From Allomuricauda sp. d1 (GTDB lineage: Bacteria > Bacteroidota > Bacteroidia > Flavobacteriales > Flavobacteriaceae), in assembly GCF_039592695.1 (NCBI RefSeq), contig NZ_JBBUTK010000003.1, positions 564,244 through 588,243 on the forward strand: 24,000 nucleotides of DNA. Reading direction: 5' to 3'. Positions 3,542 to 24,000 of the stretch are shown piece after piece (the first letter of the stretch is position 1; the number at the start of each line of letters is the position of its first letter). The notes under the pieces were generated by a model. The model was not told the DNA's origin. It worked only from the letters and a program-made list of their open reading frames with translations, and did not search any database. Position numbers and translations under genes: made by a program.

Positions 3542-3970
3542 TTAAGCCCCCTCTCCTTTGGGGAGAGGGGCTTCTTGGCACAATTCCACCAACACCCCAT
3601 TTGTGGTTTTTGGATGCAAAAAAGCCACCAACTTATTGTCTGCTCCTTTTTTTGGGGTTTCGTTCAATATGGTGAACCCTTCCCCTTTTAATCTTTTGAT
3701 TTCACCCACAATATCATCCACAGCAAAGGCAACATGGTGTATGCCCTGCCCCTTTTTCTCCAAAAATTTTGCAATGGGGCTATCGGGGTTGGTCGCTTCC
3801 AGCAGTTCGATCTTATTGGGGCCATTTTTGAAAAAAGAGGTGCGTACCCCTTCGCTGGCCACTTCTTCTATTTTGTAATGGGGCCTGCCCAACAATTTTT
3901 CGAACAGATTGTTTGAGGCTTCCAAATCATTCACGGCAATACCGATGTGCTCTATTTTCTTCATTTGCAT
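3542..3970 (-). CDS. mce: methylmalonyl-CoA epimerase (VOC/glyoxalase-fold)
   Basis: MKKIEHIGIAVNDLEASNNLFEKLLG...GIHHVAFAVDDI...LHPKTTNGVLVELCQ is the typical epimerase sequence. The start is probably the third codon (ATG at 3964). The last 9 codons (APLPKGEGA) are encoded by a G/C hairpin. Confidence 0.8.
   Translation of the reverse strand: MQMKKIEHIGIAVNDLEASNNLFEKLLGRPHYKIEEVASEGVRTSFFKNGPNKIELLEATNPDSPIAKFLEKKGQGIHHVAFAVDDIVGEIKRLKGEGFTILNETPKKGADNKLVAFLHPKTTNGVLVELCQEAPLPKGEGA
3544..3573. repeat. G/C-rich palindromic hairpin (AAGCCCCCTCTCC-TTTGG-GGAGAGGGGCTT) overlapping the 3' end of mce
   Basis: CTCTCC (3551-3556) pairs with GGAGAG (3562-3567). The stem extends through CCC/GGG and AAG/CTT with one bulged C. 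It is probably a terminator or REP-like element. Confidence 0.6.
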
Positions 3971-4054
3971 GAAATTACTAAAGTTAGCCCCAATTTAACC
4001 ACTCCTAAATTATCAAATGATGAGTTTGGTCATTAATTGGCTTATTTTTGCAAG

Positions 4055-4447
4055 ATGGAAACGCAACGACAGAAAAAAATAGCGGGTATCTTACAGCAAG
4101 ACCTCGCCGAAATATTGCAACGGGCCGCCACAGATGGTGGTATGAAGGGCGTTCTTATCAGCGTTTCAAAGGTGAATGTGACCGCCGACCTTTCCATTGC
4201 AAAGGTGTACATCAGTATTTTTCCTTCGGATAAAGGGACAGAATTATTGGACGGCATCAAATCAAACGAACCCTTGATCAAACACCAGCTGGCCCAGCGC
4301 ACGCGCCATCAAATGCGCCGCGTACCAGAGCTGATATTTTATTTGGATGATTCTCTTGACTACATAGAAGACATCGAAAAATCATTGAAGGGCAATGAAA
4401 ATCCACTTGAAAATCGCGACCTTCTGGATAAGCGAAAGAAAAAATAG
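4055..4447 (+). CDS. rbfA: ribosome-binding factor A
   Basis: METQRQKKIAGILQQDLAEILQR...VSKVNVTADLSIAKVYISIF...RRVPELIFYLDDSL is classic RbfA. I prefer the ATG at 4055 over the upstream TTG at 4037 used by the ORF track. Confidence 0.85.
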   Translation: METQRQKKIAGILQQDLAEILQRAATDGGMKGVLISVSKVNVTADLSIAKVYISIFPSDKGTELLDGIKSNEPLIKHQLAQRTRHQMRRVPELIFYLDDSLDYIEDIEKSLKGNENPLENRDLLDKRKKK

Positions 4448-4449
4448 CT

Positions 4450-5658
4450 TTGAATTTTCCATTGTACATCGCCAAGCGGTATCTACGCTCTAAAAGCAGC
4501 CAAAATGCGGTGAACATTATCAATTTTATCACTTTTTTGGTGATTGTCATCGGGTCGGCAGCCTTGTTTATTGTTCTCTCTGCTTTTGCGGGATTGAAGA
4601 CTTTTAGTCTACAGTTTACCAACAGCTTTGACCCTGACCTAAAAGCGATGCCTGTGACCGGGAAGGTTTTTTCCCTTTCCCCACAAGAGGAAACCGAATT
4701 GGGCAACATTGGCGAGGTCACTCATTTTTCAAAAGAGCTGGAAGAGCGCGTATACCTCTCGTTTAAAGACAAGGGTGATATTGTTGATATCAAGGGGGTA
4801 GATGAGAATTATCGAAAGACCACAGGTATTGACAGTACGATATATTTTGGTAATTGGGGCGTGAATGGGCAGAGCGCGGTCATGGGTATCGGTATCAGTA
4901 ATTCACTGGGCATTCCTGTCGGCAACTATCAAAACCCCATGGTGGTCTTGGCCCCAAAACCGGGCAAAGGTTCTGTTTCATCGCAATCGCTCAATTCAAA
5001 GCCCTATACAGAACTGCCCCTCGTTTTGAGCGGTGTGTACGCCATTGAAGACAATCTCGACAAAAAGTATGTTTTTGTTTCCCTTCCTCTGGTTCAAAAT
5101 CTTCTGCAAAAAGACGATGGCGAGATTTCAGGCATTAATTTCAAACTGAACCCTAGTGTTGATTTAGAGGAAGTCCGCACAGCCATAAAAAACATCTTGG
5201 GCGAAAAAGTGGTTGTACTGAGTCGACGTGAGCTCAACGGGACACTATACCGTATGCTGAACACAGAAAATTTGGCCACCTACCTTATTTTTACATTGGT
5301 GCTCATTATCGCCCTGTTCAACGTGGTCGGGGCCATTATCATGATGATTTTGGACAAACAACAAAATTCAAAAACACTCTTCAGTCTGGGCACGACCATC
5401 AAAGAACTTCGAAGAATTTATTTTGTTCAGGGCGTTTTGGTGACCTCGTTGGGTGGGCTTATCGGTGTCATCATAGGTTCATTGCTGATTGTTTCACAAT
5501 TGGCTTTCGGCTGGCTTAAAATCACCCCTTCTCTGGCTTACCCAGTAGAATATGGTGTGATGAATGTTGTCATCGTTTTGGCAACGATTGTGGTGTTGGG
5601 GGTCATTTCTTCAAAGATTGCCAGTAGTCGGGTATCAAAAAAACTGGTGTCTTTCTAG
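4450..5658 (+). CDS. LolC/LolE-like FtsX-family ABC transporter permease
   Basis: 402 aa. The N-terminus FPLYIAKRYLRSKSSQNAVNIINFITFLVIVIG is typical of LolC/E-type permeases, followed by a large periplasmic loop and then 3 C-terminal TM helices (FtsX domain). The TTG start lies 3 nt after the rbfA stop. Confidence 0.75.
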   Translation: MNFPLYIAKRYLRSKSSQNAVNIINFITFLVIVIGSAALFIVLSAFAGLKTFSLQFTNSFDPDLKAMPVTGKVFSLSPQEETELGNIGEVTHFSKELEERVYLSFKDKGDIVDIKGVDENYRKTTGIDSTIYFGNWGVNGQSAVMGIGISNSLGIPVGNYQNPMVVLAPKPGKGSVSSQSLNSKPYTELPLVLSGVYAIEDNLDKKYVFVSLPLVQNLLQKDDGEISGINFKLNPSVDLEEVRTAIKNILGEKVVVLSRRELNGTLYRMLNTENLATYLIFTLVLIIALFNVVGAIIMMILDKQQNSKTLFSLGTTIKELRRIYFVQGVLVTSLGGLIGVIIGSLLIVSQLAFGWLKITPSLAYPVEYGVMNVVIVLATIVVLGVISSKIASSRVSKKLVSF

Positions 5659-13027: not shown

Positions 13028-13900
13028 ATGCAGCTATACCCCATTGAGACCGGTAATTTCAAGTTAGATGGCGGGGCCATGTTCGGTGTCGTGCCAAAAT
13101 CGTTGTGGAACAGGACCAATCCTTCAGATGCCAACAACATGATTGAACTGGCCATGCGCTGCCTTCTGATCGAAGATGGCGATCGACTTATCTTAATCGA
13201 CAACGGGCTTGGCAACAAGCAATCAGAGAAATTTTTCGGTTATTACCATTTATGGGGAGACCATTCTTTGGATAAATCCCTAAAAAAACATGGTTTTCAC
13301 CGCGATGACATCACCGATGTATTCATGACCCACTTACACTTTGACCATTGCGGGGGCAGTATTCAATGGAACAAAGACCGAACAGGCTACGAACCTGCTT
13401 TTAAAAATGCCCGGTTTTGGACAAACGAAGACCATTGGCAATGGGCGTTGGAACCCAATCAAAGGGAAAAGGCCTCCTTTCTGAAAGAGAACCTGCTTCC
13501 GATGCAAGAAAGTGGTCAATTAAACTTCATAAAAAAGGCACAGGCCCCGTATTTGAATTGCTCTGATCTCGATTTTGGCATTTTATTTGTAAACGGCCAT
13601 ACCGAAAAACAGATGTTGCCACATATCAAATACAAAGGAAAAACCGTGGTCTTTGTGGCAGATTTGATTCCAACAGTGGGGCATATTCCTTTGCCTTATG
13701 TCATGGGCTACGATATGCGGCCTTTGGTCACATTGGATGAAAAAGGCACATTTTTGAACGAAGCCGCAGAAAAAGGGTATGTGCTATTTTTTGAACATGA
13801 TGCACACAACGAAATGTGCACCTTAAAAAGAACGGAAAAAGGGGTGCGGTTGGATCAGACTTTCAAATTTGAAGAAGTGTTTGCTGCTTCCTCCTTATAA
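13028..13900 (+). CDS. MBL-fold metallo-hydrolase
   Basis: The HxHxDH motif is present as THLHFDHCGG, with downstream His and Asp ligands (NGHTEKQ, FVADL, FEHD). 290 aa. Confidence 0.75.
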   Translation: MQLYPIETGNFKLDGGAMFGVVPKSLWNRTNPSDANNMIELAMRCLLIEDGDRLILIDNGLGNKQSEKFFGYYHLWGDHSLDKSLKKHGFHRDDITDVFMTHLHFDHCGGSIQWNKDRTGYEPAFKNARFWTNEDHWQWALEPNQREKASFLKENLLPMQESGQLNFIKKAQAPYLNCSDLDFGILFVNGHTEKQMLPHIKYKGKTVVFVADLIPTVGHIPLPYVMGYDMRPLVTLDEKGTFLNEAAEKGYVLFFEHDAHNEMCTLKRTEKGVRLDQTFKFEEVFAASSL

Positions 13901-20016: not shown

Positions 20017-21084
20017 CTACAACGCGTCTAAAGGACTGGTGATCTTTGAAAGGCTTCTGGGGGTGACCTTGGTGTACACCTGGGTCGTTTTTATAGAGTT
20101 ATGCCCCAACAATTCTTGAATAAAGCGCATATCGGCCCCAGATTCCAGCAAATGGGTGGCATAGCTGTGGCGAAGGCCGTGAATGCCGATAGTTTTATGA
20201 ACACCCGCCTTTCTCATGGCCGTTTTAAAGACATTTTGCACACTGACCTTGGCATATTGACCCCCATATTGCCCTTCCAACAGATAATTCTGAGGACGGT
20301 ACTCTAGGTAATACCTTCTCAATAGCGGTAAAAGACTTACGGGAAGCGGTACATACCTGTCCTTTTTTCCTTTGGCACCTCGAATGTGCACCATCATACG
20401 CTCACTGTCGATGTCACCAATCTTCAGGTTTACCACTTCTGACACCCGTAGCCCCATGCCATAGGCCAGTTGTAGGGCCACAAGATGTTTTATGTTTGAT
20501 GTTACCGAGAGTATTCTCTTGACCTCATTCTTGCTCAGTGCCTTTGGCAGCACTTGGGGTTTTTTGGGCCTGGGAATGTCAAAAAACATTTTTGGCCGAT
20601 GCAGCACCTGTTCATAATAAAACTTAATGGCATTGATTTTACCATTAAGTTTTCGTTCAGCCATCTGCTCTTTTTGCACACAATACAGAAAATAGTCTTT
20701 TAGCCGCTTGGGGGTCATTTTTTCAACAGGAAAATCTTTTAAAAGCAGTAGCAGATGGTAGAACTCGCTTAAATATTGTTTGATGGTGTTCTGACTGTAC
20801 TGTTTTAGTTTCAATTGTTCATGCATTGAAACATACGCTTGGCGATTGACTTGGTTCACTTTTGACAGTTTTGAACCGATTGTGGGTTTGGGCCCAAGTT
20901 GAAGTGCCTTTCGCACGCTAGGCAAGTCTGGCAGGTACCATGCTTTTTTGGTCTTGCTCCATTTTGCAGAAGGAAATCTTGACCTCAACGCCTCTTGCAG
21001 ATTTTTATCAAACACAAAGCGAACCTGAATGATCGGTCGACCTCGATGCTGGCCAAAGGAGAAGTGATATTTTGAAAAATCCAC
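20017..21084 (-). CDS. tyrosine-type site-specific recombinase (XerC/D-like catalytic domain with a Bacteroidota-type N-terminal domain); not a canonical IntI
   Basis: Catalytic residues are present: GLRVSE (Arg I), HGLRHSYATHLL (His-x-x-Arg) and LLGHNSIKTTQVYTKV (His/Tyr). There is a SAM-like core-binding domain (TIKQYLSEFYHLL). The N-terminus HRGRPIIQVRFVFD...KWSKTKKAWYLP is seen in many Bacteroidota integrases. GTG start at 21084. The spacing between GAKGKKDR and HGLRHS is too short to hold the IntI-specific additional domain. Confidence 0.9.
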   Translation of the reverse strand: MDFSKYHFSFGQHRGRPIIQVRFVFDKNLQEALRSRFPSAKWSKTKKAWYLPDLPSVRKALQLGPKPTIGSKLSKVNQVNRQAYVSMHEQLKLKQYSQNTIKQYLSEFYHLLLLLKDFPVEKMTPKRLKDYFLYCVQKEQMAERKLNGKINAIKFYYEQVLHRPKMFFDIPRPKKPQVLPKALSKNEVKRILSVTSNIKHLVALQLAYGMGLRVSEVVNLKIGDIDSERMMVHIRGAKGKKDRYVPLPVSLLPLLRRYYLEYRPQNYLLEGQYGGQYAKVSVQNVFKTAMRKAGVHKTIGIHGLRHSYATHLLESGADMRFIQELLGHNSIKTTQVYTKVTPRSLSKITSPLDAL

Positions 21085-21235: not shown

Positions 21236-21247
21236 GTTAGGCAACAT

Positions 21248-21985
21248 ATGAGACAACTTAACATTCACGAATTGGAAAGCAAAACGCACGACTATTTTTT
21301 GGACGTGGAATATGCCCAGCATAATGACGTGAAAAATAAGTTAACTCAACTAATGAATTTTTTGAGCAGCCAAGATATATCCAAGAACATTCTAGAGAGG
21401 ATAAAAGAAGATTACAATGATTTATATCAAAAACTTGACCCCCTTAATGACCAATCCCCAGAAAGAACCAAAAGAGATATTATAGAACAACTTTTAACAC
21501 CAGACCACCAAGGAGCCTTTGGATATTTTCTCATTGAAAAGAAGTTCAAAGAGCCAAGAAAAGTTTCTCAACATTATATCGATTTATCCTGGAAGTGGTA
21601 CAGTCGAGGACATAATTATAATGAACAACAAGATGGTTTTAATTTCTATTTTTTAAAACCTTTTAAAGAGTTATTCGACTGGTATTTATCTGAAAGTCAA
21701 ACCGAAAAGGAATCGGACTTTTTTTCATATAAAAGTCAAGAAAAAGTCTTTGAAAAATTAGATAACCTTGAGGAAATGCTAACAAAACAAGGATTTGGAC
21801 AAGGGATAATCTTTAATGAAATTGAGGAACTAAAGGAATTGACTAAAAAGCTGAATAAAAAAAATTGGAGTGAAATCATTAAAGGTAAGTTCGTGGACTT
21901 AGCCTTAGGAGGTATTCTAACAAAAGAAGCTGCAATCAAAGCAATTGAATTCCTAACTGGAACGGAACTGAATTTATTAAAATAA
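21248..21985 (+). CDS. cassette 1 ORF: hypothetical protein, 245 aa, no family recognised
   Basis: Clean ATG-to-TAA ORF that starts 12 nt after the junction. It is AT-rich, rich in Lys, Glu and Asn, and predicted soluble and helical. No motifs I can name. Confidence 0.7.
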   Translation: MRQLNIHELESKTHDYFLDVEYAQHNDVKNKLTQLMNFLSSQDISKNILERIKEDYNDLYQKLDPLNDQSPERTKRDIIEQLLTPDHQGAFGYFLIEKKFKEPRKVSQHYIDLSWKWYSRGHNYNEQQDGFNFYFLKPFKELFDWYLSESQTEKESDFFSYKSQEKVFEKLDNLEEMLTKQGFGQGIIFNEIEELKELTKKLNKKNWSEIIKGKFVDLALGGILTKEAAIKAIEFLTGTELNLLK

Positions 21986-21989
21986 ATAC

Positions 21990-22120
21990 GTTGCCTAACA
22001 ATGGCTATAATTCAGCTTTGCCCTCTGCCCTACTTGAAAATCTATATCTTTAAATCGGCTGGATTTCGAAGCTGGAAAATCCCGTTGGGATTTCCCAAGC
22101 CGAAATCATAGCCGAGACCG
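21990..22120 (+). repeat. attC-like recombination site of cassette 1 (~131 bp imperfect hairpin)
   Basis: GTTGCCTAAC (21990-21999) is the reverse complement of GTTAGGCAAC (21236-21245). GGCTATAATTCAGCTT (22003-22018) pairs imperfectly with AAGCCGAAATCATAGCC (22097-22113). An inner hairpin lies at 22074-22095. The site ends GAGACCG|TT. Confidence 0.7.
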
Positions 22121-22143
22121 TTGTGGGTAATGTTGACCAACCA

Positions 22144-22980
22144 ATGGAAATAAACGAACAAGCAAAATATATTGACCATTTTTTAAGAGAATTATATAAT
22201 TCATCTTTTGCTACATCATTAGCAATGGGAATTGAAATGAAACAATTACCAAGTCAACAGAACAAAGAGAAATTTAAGACATTAGAATACATCTTGGAAG
22301 AATTAGAATTGGTCGAATTTGTGCTTGGAAGAGATAATTCAACTTTGAGCGGACAATGTGAATATCACATAAGTGGGAAAGGTCGTGAGCTGGTCGAAAG
22401 AAACGAATCAAGTATTGGATTACTTTTAGAAAGAGAAATTCAAAATGTGACAAAAAATAATCCTTTGTTTGACGACAAAGAATGGGATAAATATTATGAC
22501 CGACTTCTTGAAAAAAGAGCTGACCAAGCAGATTTTTTTCTTGATATGATAATTGAGAAGAAACTCATAAATCTTGACAAATCTACATTGAGAAAATATT
22601 TTAAAGAATGGTTCAAAGAAAATCAAGAATTCGATTTACAAATAAAGAATGGAGATTTGGCAATAGAAGATGGTGATTTACAAACTGTACCTGACTTCAG
22701 CGAAGAAAACATACCTGAATTTATTAAATGGTTTCAGGAAAAAGGAAATGAATTTATGGACTTTCTAAAAGAAAAAGGGTTAAGTGTTCAAGAAAACTCA
22801 AAAGAACAGATTATTAACCAAGGAAATCTTATAATAAACAAGGATTCTAAAATTAAAACTCAATCCATTGGAGAAGAAAAAGAACAAAAAGAATCGAATT
22901 GGAATAAAACAAACGTTATCATAGCTTTAGTAGTTGGAATAGCGACAATTATAGGTGTGATTTGGCAAATAATAGGATAA
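22144..22980 (+). CDS. cassette 2 ORF: hypothetical tail-anchored membrane protein, ~278 aa
   Basis: The ORF is open from GTG 22123, which lies inside the junction core, but ATG 22144 (MEINEQAKY) is more plausible. There is a single C-terminal TM helix, NVIIALVVGIATIIGVIWQIIG. AT-rich, and no family recognised. Confidence 0.7.
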   Translation: MEINEQAKYIDHFLRELYNSSFATSLAMGIEMKQLPSQQNKEKFKTLEYILEELELVEFVLGRDNSTLSGQCEYHISGKGRELVERNESSIGLLLEREIQNVTKNNPLFDDKEWDKYYDRLLEKRADQADFFLDMIIEKKLINLDKSTLRKYFKEWFKENQEFDLQIKNGDLAIEDGDLQTVPDFSEENIPEFIKWFQEKGNEFMDFLKEKGLSVQENSKEQIINQGNLIINKDSKIKTQSIGEEKEQKESNWNKTNVIIALVVGIATIIGVIWQIIG

Positions 22981-22987
22981 AAAACAC

Positions 22988-23117
22988 TACCCACAACAAC
23001 GTGTATAGCTCATTGCGGCTCTAATGGTTATTTGAATCTATTTTCCTACAAACAATCTTTACATTCTTCGGAATAAAACGTACCTTAAATCCCGCAACGA
23101 AGCCATACACAATACCG
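22988..23117 (+). repeat. attC-like recombination site of cassette 2 (~130 bp imperfect hairpin)
   Basis: TACCCACAAC (22988-22997) is the reverse complement of GTTGTGGGTA (22120-22129). GTGTATAGCTCATTGCGG (23001-23018) pairs with CCGCAACGAAGCCATACAC (23092-23110). An inner ATTC-TTCG-GAAT hairpin lies at 23063-23074. The 3-nt versus 6-nt internal loop is the same as in site 1. Confidence 0.7.
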
Positions 23118-23470
23118 ATGATGTCGAATACGCCTGCGGCGTACTTTTGCTGCACTGCTGGCGCAGTCACCGCACCAAAAGCGAGTCGACATCATCGCCG
23201 CGCTATGCCAGATTGCAAAGACCGCAGGATAAGGGACATTCTTGACAATATCGCCGCAACGGCTCAACTACTCGACATATCGGGACGCTATATGCAATCT
23301 GGTCGACTGATTTTATTCCCAATACCGCAAAATCCACAAGGAAACGTCCGCTGGTGCGGACTCCTTGGCGAACAATGCCGCAGGGTAAACCCGATGCCAA
23401 TCCCAGCGGCATTGTTGAAAGGATTTTGCTATATTTCCATAAAATCCGCCGGACTTCACATAGCGCGGCG
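23118..23470 (+). other. cassette 3: GC-rich, repeat-dense unit without a convincing ORF (possible ncRNA, decayed cassette or stack of recombination-site remnants)
   Basis: It is bounded by junctions G|ATGATGTCGA (23117) and GCGCGGCG|TTGTGG (23470). Several internal inverted and direct repeats are listed in the findings. The composition is clearly more GC-rich than both neighbours. Confidence 0.55.
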
Positions 23471-23487
23471 TTGTGGTTAATTTTCCA

Positions 23488-24000
23488 ATGAAAGGACTGC
23501 TTAAAACAATTTCGGAAAAAGCTATTGAACTTCAGGATTTTTCATATTCCGAAGAGCAAATCCAGCATAAATGGCTAGGGACAAAACCCGTAACGGAAAA
23601 TGAACTTGAATCAATTGAAAAAAGGTTGGGAATTCAATTACCAGAGGACTATATCAATTTTCTGAAAATAACCAATGGATTTTCAGCTCCAAACCTTGTG
23701 GAACCGACTTTTGAGCCTTTTTGGAAAATTGACTTTCTTAAAGAAGTGGACAACTTCATAATCGAAGTTTGGAAGAAAAATGGACTTACCGAAATTGGAA
23801 AAAATCTTGAAAGCAGCATTATAGTCGGAGGAATTGAAGAAGAACAATACTTTTTACTAATTCCACCCGAAAAGGCAAATGACAACTGGAAATATTGGAA
23901 ATTCAGTTCATGGCAACCAGGGGAGGACGAATATGAAAACCTTCAGGACTATTTTGAAAAGGTTCTGGAATTTACACTTGACGAACTAGAACATAAATAA
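23488..24000 (+). CDS. cassette 4 ORF: SMI1/KNR4 (SUKH-1) family protein, the family used as immunity proteins of polymorphic toxin systems
   Basis: ELESIEKRLGIQLPEDYINFLKITNGF is the hallmark SMI1_KNR4 N-terminal motif, and the size (~170 aa) fits. ATG at 23488, 18 nt after the junction. The TAA stop occupies 23998-24000. No toxin gene is adjacent. Confidence 0.85.
   Translation: MKGLLKTISEKAIELQDFSYSEEQIQHKWLGTKPVTENELESIEKRLGIQLPEDYINFLKITNGFSAPNLVEPTFEPFWKIDFLKEVDNFIIEVWKKNGLTEIGKNLESSIIVGGIEEEQYFLLIPPEKANDNWKYWKFSSWQPGEDEYENLQDYFEKVLEFTLDELEHK

Follow-up and report, generated by a model that had tools for sequence, protein, structure and literature searches.

A 353-bp unit in a cassette array of Allomuricauda sp. 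d1 was found to be inserted exactly at the crossover point of an attC site. The window, that is the whole stretch of 24,000 nucleotides that was analysed, contains the recombinase gene of the array, two ordinary cassettes, the unit and the start of a further cassette. The unit is best explained as an ORF-less, cassette-like mobile element that was inserted by the recombinase of the array. It would amount to a symmetric hairpin, attC-like but oversized, whose branched core is conserved. This reading was given a probability of roughly 0.55. The features on which it is based are listed in Table 1.

Table 1. Features of the unit, its array and related loci. Positions are those of the window unless a locus is named; an arrow marks a crossover point.
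Feature	Position	Strand	Basis or remark
Tyrosine recombinase, integron-like platform	20017-21084	-	Pfam Phage_integrase 1e-38
attC of cassette 1 (attC1)	21993-22120	+	Ordinary, ~130 nt, without insert; read from sequence
attC of cassette 2 (attC2)	22988-23117	+	Full to crossover G; inverted repeats I14, I18 and I7; fold
Unit: non-coding, self-folding, cassette-like insert	23118-23470	+	353 bp; homologous copies known
5' terminal arm ATGATGTCGA	23118-23127	+	Pairs with 23186-23195 (I8)
Spacer ("cargo"), 58 nt	23128-23185	+	Two small hairpins, 23129-43 and 23144-81
Internal 22-mer TCGACATCATCGCCGCGCTATG	23186-23207	+	Template strand aligning both unit ends
Domain B1	23208-23302	+	Closing stem CCAGATTGCA/TGCAATCTGG (I4), stacked directly on the 22-bp helix
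Domain B2, conserved core	23304-23451	+	Covariance model R1 and pair counts
Near-invariant 20-mer TTTGCTATATTTCCATAAAA	23425-23444	+	Retained even in the shortest relatives
3' terminal arm CATAGCGCGGCG	23459-23470	+	Pairs with 23196-23207 (I3); ends at crossover G23470↓TT
Next cassette	23471-24000	+	Starts TTGTGGTTAAT; SMI1/KNR4 (SUKH) ORF 23488-24000, Pfam PF09346 8e-12
IS110/IS1111-type copies	L040 3233-4288; L039 3446-4336; L045 87-1169; L001 7311-7817; L002 9695-10012

The right end of the window is an integron-like platform. A junction at G21236↓TTAGGCAAC follows the recombinase gene and A+T-rich plus-strand cassettes come next, the first two with ORFs at 21248-21985 and 22123-22980 and the third with the SUKH ORF. 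The start of each cassette can pair with the R'' box in the attC site of that cassette. In cassette 1 GTTGCCTAAC at 21990-21999 matches the cassette start, and in cassette 2 ACTACCCACAAC at 22986-22997 matches the start TTGTGGGTAAT at 11 of 12 positions. The R'' box of attC1, GCCTAAC, can pair with the start of cassette 1, G↓TTAGGCAAC at 21236; attC1 has its crossover at G22120↓TT and ends in ...CATAGCCGAGACCG↓TTGTGGG. In attC2 the R'' box is CCCACAAC at 22990-97 and L'' and L' lie at 23001-10 and 23101-10. The end of attC2, ...AATACCG, resembles the ...GAGACCG↓TTGTGGG of attC1.

The platform recombinase scored 196.9 bits against the integron integrase model TIGR02249, under the cut-off of 265. 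On alignment to VchIntIA (2a3v) chain residues 211-246 were skipped, and the recombinase has no counterpart to the IntI-specific insertion, the extra domain between patches II and III that takes up ~36 residues in VchIntIA. Its closest solved relative is the archaeal XerA (4a8e). Judged by these comparisons, the recombinase is Xer-like and not a typical IntI, yet it adjoins a textbook attI/attC array. Its sequence is 100% identical to a protein of Allomuricauda sp. d1. Homologues with 66-85% identity, nearly all of them 355 aa, were found in many Flavobacteriaceae genera. Homologous recombinases also lie next to the arrays at loci L044 and L045.

The unit has a G+C content of 0.521. The corresponding values are 0.30-0.35 for the cassette ORFs, 0.44 for attC1, 0.385 for attC2 and 0.449 for the backbone. 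A content of ~57% had been claimed for 23121-23180 and 0.567 was counted there. The left end of the unit falls exactly on the expected G↓TT of attC2 and the right end on the crossover G↓TTGTGG, giving the integrated order ...ACCG↓ATGATG...GCGGCG↓TTGTGG. For the left boundary there is an ambiguity of 2 nt, since CG stands at the end of both the left flank (...ACCG) and the unit (...GGCG); inverted repeat I8 spans 23116-23127. With the 353 bp taken out attC2 reads ...AATACCG↓TTGTGGTTAAT, the same architecture as the ...GAGACCG↓TTGTGGGTAAT of attC1. As attC2 is complete to the crossover base and its flanks rejoin like those of attC1, the unit is an insertion exactly at the attC2 crossover. Both junctions support the original prediction of a separate ORF-poor unit between cassette crossover points. 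Two properties of an ORF-less cassette are seen in the unit: it is bounded by crossover points of the array on both sides and it has no conserved reading frame.

Joining the end of the unit to its start (CATAGCGCGGCG+ATGATGTCGA, 23459-23470 and 23118-23127) gives a 22-mer which is the exact reverse complement of 23186-23207. A perfect 22-bp stem without an internal loop had been described for the joined ends and 22 contiguous Watson-Crick pairs were counted. The repeats reported for the interior are all present. These are CCAGATTGCA and TGCAATCTGG (23208-17 and 23293-302), AACAATGCCGC and GCGGCATTGTT (23371-81 and 23406-16), GTCCGC-TGGT-GCGGAC (23346-61) and a degenerate copy of the arm at 23272-94. 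Domain B2 comprises a closing stem (23304-16 with 23439-51), an interrupted helix (23321-35 with 23421-35) and two hairpins, at 23346-61 and 23371-416. The second hairpin is almost free in sequence and constant in form.

Folding of both strands went far beyond shuffled controls, with z-scores from -6.9 to -10.0. As single-stranded DNA the top strand of the unit gave -88.8 kcal/mol (z -8.3) and the bottom strand -97.2 kcal/mol (z -10.0), making the bottom strand ~8 kcal/mol more stable. As RNA the z-scores of the two strands were -6.9 and -7.8 and the energies -143 and -159 kcal/mol, the G-rich minus strand being the more stable. In each of these four cases 0 of 100 shuffled controls reached the observed energy. 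The minimum free energy fold of the single strand 22983-23484 is a four-way junction centred on the crossover. Two arms come from attC2, namely its R''/R' helix (22991-22997 with 23470-23476) and its stem; the other two are the unit helices 23118-27/23186-95 and 23196-207/23459-70. As modelled, this is the geometry expected once two folded hairpin sites exchange strands.

The same fold could be taken to mean that the unit and the 130-nt hairpin upstream of it form a single ~480-nt recombination site of cassette 2. The unit would then have lost independent mobility or never have had it, and its 3' arm would supply the L'/R' strand that is cut between 23470 and 23471. The predicted pairing of the attC2 R'' box (22990-97) with 23470-76 (I7) is consistent with such a composite site. 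However, the helix into which the two ends of the unit pair begins and ends precisely at the junctions, as for an inserted circle and not for an extension. The distribution of the relatives, given below, bears on this composite site as well.

A 120-codon plus-strand frame (23118-23480) starts with ATG and spans the whole unit without interruption, and two database proteins resemble it. It might be supposed from this that the unit is a small protein gene, read in this frame or in one on the minus strand. The frames of the unit matched nothing in Pfam or NCBIfam and a search of 5.8 billion proteins with the unit frame returned two small hypothetical ORFs only. One of these, P0002, follows the window frame in its first half and another frame in its second. 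The copies of the unit in Saonia flava break the plus frame, the minus-strand frames differ between copies and the substitutions compensate stems, not codons. A protein gene is thus extremely improbable, and the protein-coding reading was rejected on the missing family match and on the mere two protein matches, one with a frame switch. The unit had been called ORF-poor, and the check for a conserved protein frame agreed with this in that the frame is not kept in relatives.

Relatives of the unit were found through the two ORF matches and then by a scan with a conserved 19-mer, one genome being taken per species. The first loci were L001, in a Flavobacteriaceae MAG (OY969790.1), and L002, in Pseudozobellia sp. 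WGM2. Both are runs of small same-strand genes that look like cassette arrays. True homologues are present in at least 11 copies in OY969790.1, in five copies within 8 kb in Saonia flava, and also in Pseudozobellia, two species of Maribacter and Croceitalea. Cellulophaga and one more Flavobacteriaceae MAG (L028) have the minimal 3' piece only. Recurrence of the unit in other arrays had been named as a point to check, and it does recur, as a multi-copy family in cassette arrays of marine Flavobacteriaceae. In the one-genome-per-species scan relatives were confined to Flavobacteriaceae cassette arrays. Foreign high-GC DNA captured inside a site, one of three explanations originally offered, was left unsupported by this confinement, the G+C excess sitting in paired stems. 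A pattern scan of metagenomes for the unit gave chance matches only and a plasmid database search for it returned nothing.

All copies lie in cassette orientation and most end in ...CATAGCGCGGCG↓TTRRRY. Six copies are full or nearly so (the window copy, L001b and Saonia a-d). They follow five different attC ends, always as ...CG↓ATGATGTCG, and all end in ...GCGGCG↓TT(G/A)... The aligned full copies (L001b and Saonia a-c; n = 4) are 86-88% identical to the window copy and their flanking cassettes are unrelated. At L021 and in Saonia the sequence after each copy is complementary to an R'' box further down that cassette, and the right end of the unit is therefore a genuine cassette boundary. The attC type of the window occurs uninterrupted, as attC1 and at L001 6297-6446. 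The arrays L044 and L045, which lie beside homologous recombinases in two other genomes, have zero copies of the unit, showing the unit to be optional. The five attC contexts, the unit-free attC sites and the unit-free arrays argue for a separable, optional and mobile entity. Among the loci compared neither a circular form of the unit nor an empty/filled polymorphism of one locus was seen, which counts against a mobile cassette. Contigs of close relatives break at the array.

A composite attC site would account for several of these loci. Every Saonia cassette examined carries the unit, each ORF cassette ending in hairpin plus unit, and the unit variants track the attC variants. Two adjacent Saonia cassettes have one attC variant and one unit variant in common. 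This pattern fits co-inherited composites as well as repeated insertion. At L021 and L011 there are cassettes that close with nothing but the 3' module, 430-450 nt downstream of their R'' box. Against a composite site, the unit follows five unrelated attC ends, the upstream hairpins lack nothing before the crossover base, and in attC1 and at L001 6297-6446 members of the attC family function with no unit present. The composite site was considered unlikely, though not negligible, and insertion of a separate mobile element was preferred.

On the sequences compared, the best reading of the family's history is that it multiplied in arrays of marine Flavobacteriaceae and then decayed or recombined into many partial forms. 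A pile-up of decayed recombination sites, also among the original explanations, does not fit the window copy, as this copy is intact and shows 86-88% identity to those of other genera. It does fit many of the relatives, which are truncated or chimeric. Toxin-antitoxin cassettes of OY969790.1 (L021 2549-2985 and 3727-4188; L011) end in 430-450-nt regions. Each region combines R'' with a terminator-like hairpin and semi-conserved sequence, and of the 3' module it has the distal part only. These ends fold no better than chance (z -1.2) and for this reason look like decayed or recombined sites.

Further variation was seen among the copies and their arrays. A ~56-nt mini-insert (TATTCA...AT-rich...TTCATCGGTCGCTACGCTCGGT), missing from the window copy, lies at differing positions within different copies of the unit (L001 9963-10018; L005 ~5377-5325, 4393-4340 and ~6325-6270), and relatives have a 56-nt one in the spacer. 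It has the look of a mobile or recombined module of yet smaller size. In four of the five Saonia copies (L005) GGACTTCA is replaced by a 40-nt insert (ACCAGCGCTCCAGCCCGCACACTGCTTTCGCAGATGTCGT), for example at 6112-6080, located ~33 nt before the 3' arm; L005e is without it. One downstream cassette (TTGTGCTTCATTATCAGAAACC...) follows two different decayed unit variants, in Saonia (L005, 2790 downstream) and in Maribacter sp. 4G9 (L013, oriented, 3783 onward), and the upstream cassettes of these two loci differ. Maribacter sp. R77961 has three copies, 92-98% identical, of another ~470-nt cassette (L045 1913-2382, 5816-6285 and 9352-9821). This cassette has no sense ORF and a short attC of ~60 nt, and one copy comes first in the array, adjoining the recombinase gene. 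Multi-copy gene-less cassettes may, from these sequences, be a theme in such arrays.

The structure of the unit is maintained in its relatives. A compensatory double change in the terminal arm in L001 (ATGATGTCGC/GCGACATCAT) keeps the helix paired, and the Saonia copies have one mismatch in the 22-bp stem. The covariance model R1 was built from four sequences over the 3' core (window 23304-23470) and used to re-align 13 copies. In this alignment, which was itself fitted to the structure, 92.4% of pair cells held standard pairs compared to 35-48% with the partners slid by 1-3 columns. Under the same caveat 18 of the 49 pairs had changed on both sides, and the covariation score was reached by 0 of 500 shuffles. 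A plain MAFFT alignment of truncated copies, when analysed with RNAalifold, gave no structural information. Departures from standard pairing in the core were about equal for G-T and A-C (24 and 17), so that no strand was favoured. Folding by itself does not account for the near-invariant 20-mer or for the conserved loops, a point against the preferred reading. A likeness of the 20-mer region to the attI region was dropped because 105 of 300 shuffles scored as well.

Selection of the core at the RNA level would make the unit a cassette-borne structured non-coding RNA gene or cis-acting RNA. It would act on the antisense strand or on the sense strand, where processing, stability or read-through of the array transcript could be affected. 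The high G+C content of the unit amid A+T-rich sequence, the strong RNA z-scores on both strands, the covariation and the greater RNA stability of the G-rich minus strand (-159 against -143 kcal/mol) are in line with this. ORF-less cassettes are a fair share of cassettes and some are known to encode sRNAs or promoters (PMC6557892). Rfam gave nothing in the window at E up to 10. At the gathering score nothing overlapped the units in six related loci, in which a group II intron and tRNA were detected, and a known RNA family was ruled out as the identity of the unit by these searches. No sigma-70-type promoter was found in the unit and no properly spaced Bacteroidetes -33/-7 pair was seen by eye, only a lone TACTTTTG at 23142-49. 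There is no excess of G-U over A-C on either strand and no consistent downstream gene family across the loci, and the unit ends fall on recombination crossovers, not on transcript signals. An RNA gene or element was judged improbable. In the modelled folds the missing strand bias and the better bottom-strand DNA fold lean slightly towards a site that acts at the DNA level. The ORF-less cassette with a structured interior was the best fitting of the three original explanations, the choice there between RNA and single-stranded DNA as the selected form tilting slightly to DNA.

Mobile elements that target attC sites were present in the same arrays. An IS110/IS1111-type IS inserts 5 nt after the AAC of R'', opposite to the cassette orientation, and ends in ...GGCTTTTCATAGGAG. 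Full-length or near-full copies occur in arrays of Zobellia, Arenibacter and Maribacter, and more than 50 truncated C-terminal pieces of the transposase (41-116 aa) are held in the protein database. The L001 array also has a group II intron (3889-5625, minus strand) lying opposite to the cassettes, as group IIC-attC introns do. It matched the Rfam models for D1-D4 and domain V/VI and includes an RT/maturase ORF (3931-5247).

The unit could be a transposase-less miniature of such an element, either an IS110/IS1111-type IS with a guide RNA or a group IIC intron, moved in trans. This would agree with the presence of IS110-family relics and one group II intron in opposite orientation in the same arrays, with the fusion of two unit copies (L001a and L002) to IS relics, with the CG dinucleotide that flanks the unit on both sides, and with the length of ~350 nt, the size of the non-coding parts of such an IS. 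The fused copies are deletion chimeras in which an IS in the upstream attC has been joined to the downstream unit. BLASTN and local alignment showed no nucleotide or protein likeness of the window unit to IS ends or transposase, and neither a DEDD transposase remnant nor IS-homologous ends were found in the unit. The insertion point of the IS is 5 nt beyond the AAC of R'' and not at the crossover, and CG↓TT is all that the unit flanks have in common, which is not enough for targeting by a guide RNA. One criterion for IS1111 elements is a pair of subterminal inverted repeats, 11-13 bp long, that have extensions of 7 bp and 3 bp (PMC11187229). On inspection the unit has no repeats of this 7/3 pattern, the unit ends giving only a weak gapped match of ~8/11 (ATGTGAAGT and ATGTCGAAT). 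The Rfam models for group II intron structure (D1-D4, domain V/VI) that find the L001 intron matched nothing in the window to E 10. An IS110/IS1111 origin had been suggested by a 68-aa minus-strand ORF beside L001a, which is the C-terminus of an IS110 transposase; this lead was rejected as no homology to the unit was found. A miniature of either kind was considered very unlikely.

The preferred reading, an ORF-less mobile element inserted by the array recombinase, implies a mechanism in several steps. In a circular form the unit ends would align on the internal 22-mer to give the perfect 22-bp stem, with the 251-nt branched conserved core on top. This stem would be the recombination site of the unit. 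One strand would be cut between G and A of ...GCGGCG↓ATGATG... and exchanged with folded attC2 at G↓TT by the tyrosine recombinase of the array. After integration the single-stranded DNA of unit and attC2 would refold to the four-way junction at the crossover. The neighbouring recombinase is the presumed agent, and movement would be continuing. Excision as a circle and re-integration through the integrase are suggested, indirectly, by the five insertion contexts. The conserved core probably serves the element, through compact folding and/or protein recognition, and not a host gene.

The crossover triplet of the unit is GAT, not GTT. IntI1 accepts a substitution of the middle base of GTT, and recombination in fact increased when this T was changed to A (PMC2811028), so the GAT triplet is no obstacle. 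A second GAT-triplet junction was seen at L001 ~13430-13450, where an ordinary attC ends in ...CCATAGCCGAGACG and is followed by ATGATAAAC and not by TT... Two points count against an attC-like site: the stem is without AAC/GTT, extrahelical bases and a central spacer, with a size of ~295 nt, and the recombinase is without the insertion that reads extrahelical bases. It might be speculated that a bulge-free symmetric hairpin is a good substrate for a Xer-like enzyme. A bolder and doubtful proposal is that the unit is a non-autonomous parasite of attC sites, which hijacks the Xer-like recombinase by means of its bulge-free hairpin. The 150-nt core and the 20-mer would then be a recognition or loading module, or an antisense RNA. 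If this proposal is true, the module would let the unit multiply inside arrays by insertion at attC crossovers instead of at attI.

No description of this unit family was found in a literature search. What is new is the combination of a multi-copy gene-less unit shared between genera, a bulge-free 22-bp stem with GAT, a 251-nt covarying interior, insertion at the attC crossover and Xer-like recombinases. Integron cassettes are usually treated as passive cargo consisting of a gene and a short, poorly conserved hairpin. If the preferred reading is true, a gene-less multi-copy unit would show cassettes as selfish replicators and insertion from attC to attC could shape arrays. The family is a natural test case for the recognition of folded DNA by a Xer-like recombinase without the IntI domain. 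IntegronFinder caps attC sites at ~200 nt. Finders with a size limit would miss the unit sites and mis-segment Flavobacteriaceae arrays.

The unit was compared to known systems. It shares with attC sites and ORF-less cassettes its crossover-bounded ends, its array orientation and its lack of an ORF. As in attC sites, an imperfect palindrome has one half on either side of the cassette junction, so that complementarity extends over the junction of the circle. The 3' end, CATAGC-N6-G↓TT, is like the L'/R' side of the neighbouring attC sites. In contrast to attC sites, the stem consists of 22 perfect base pairs, with neither extrahelical bases nor an unpaired spacer, and the triplet is GAT/ATC in place of GTT/AAC at the R''/R' position (...CAT C / G ATG...). 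The "loop" is 251 nt, 86-88% conserved between genera, with a covarying three-way architecture. Usual attC sites are ~57-141 nt in length, and the total unit site, at ~295 nt, has roughly double the maximum length of these. The unit also differs from attC cassettes in occurring in many copies per array and in being inserted at attC rather than at attI.

The VCRs of Vibrio sedentary chromosomal integrons similarly punctuate a chromosomal cassette array with highly similar repeats. Here, however, ordinary attC repeats exist already, and the unit is an extra on some of them and is absent in related arrays. The IS1111-attC group of the IS110 family, which is guided by seekRNA or bridge RNA, has orientation-specific attC targeting, a circular intermediate and a structured non-coding region in common with the unit and co-occurs with it. 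The unit differs from these IS in having no transposase or homology, in lying at the crossover instead of 5 nt after R'', and in its opposite orientation. Group IIC-attC introns are likewise structured and invade attC sites, as the one in L001 does, but the unit has no group II domains, is half the size of a minimal intron and lies in cassette orientation. The CTX-phi-type folded single-stranded attachment sites of XerCD are set apart by the absence of phage genes here and by the position of the unit inside an integron-type array. In those sites a hairpin mimics the duplex core for a Xer-family enzyme, and the unit would resemble them in this, the recombinase here being Xer-like.
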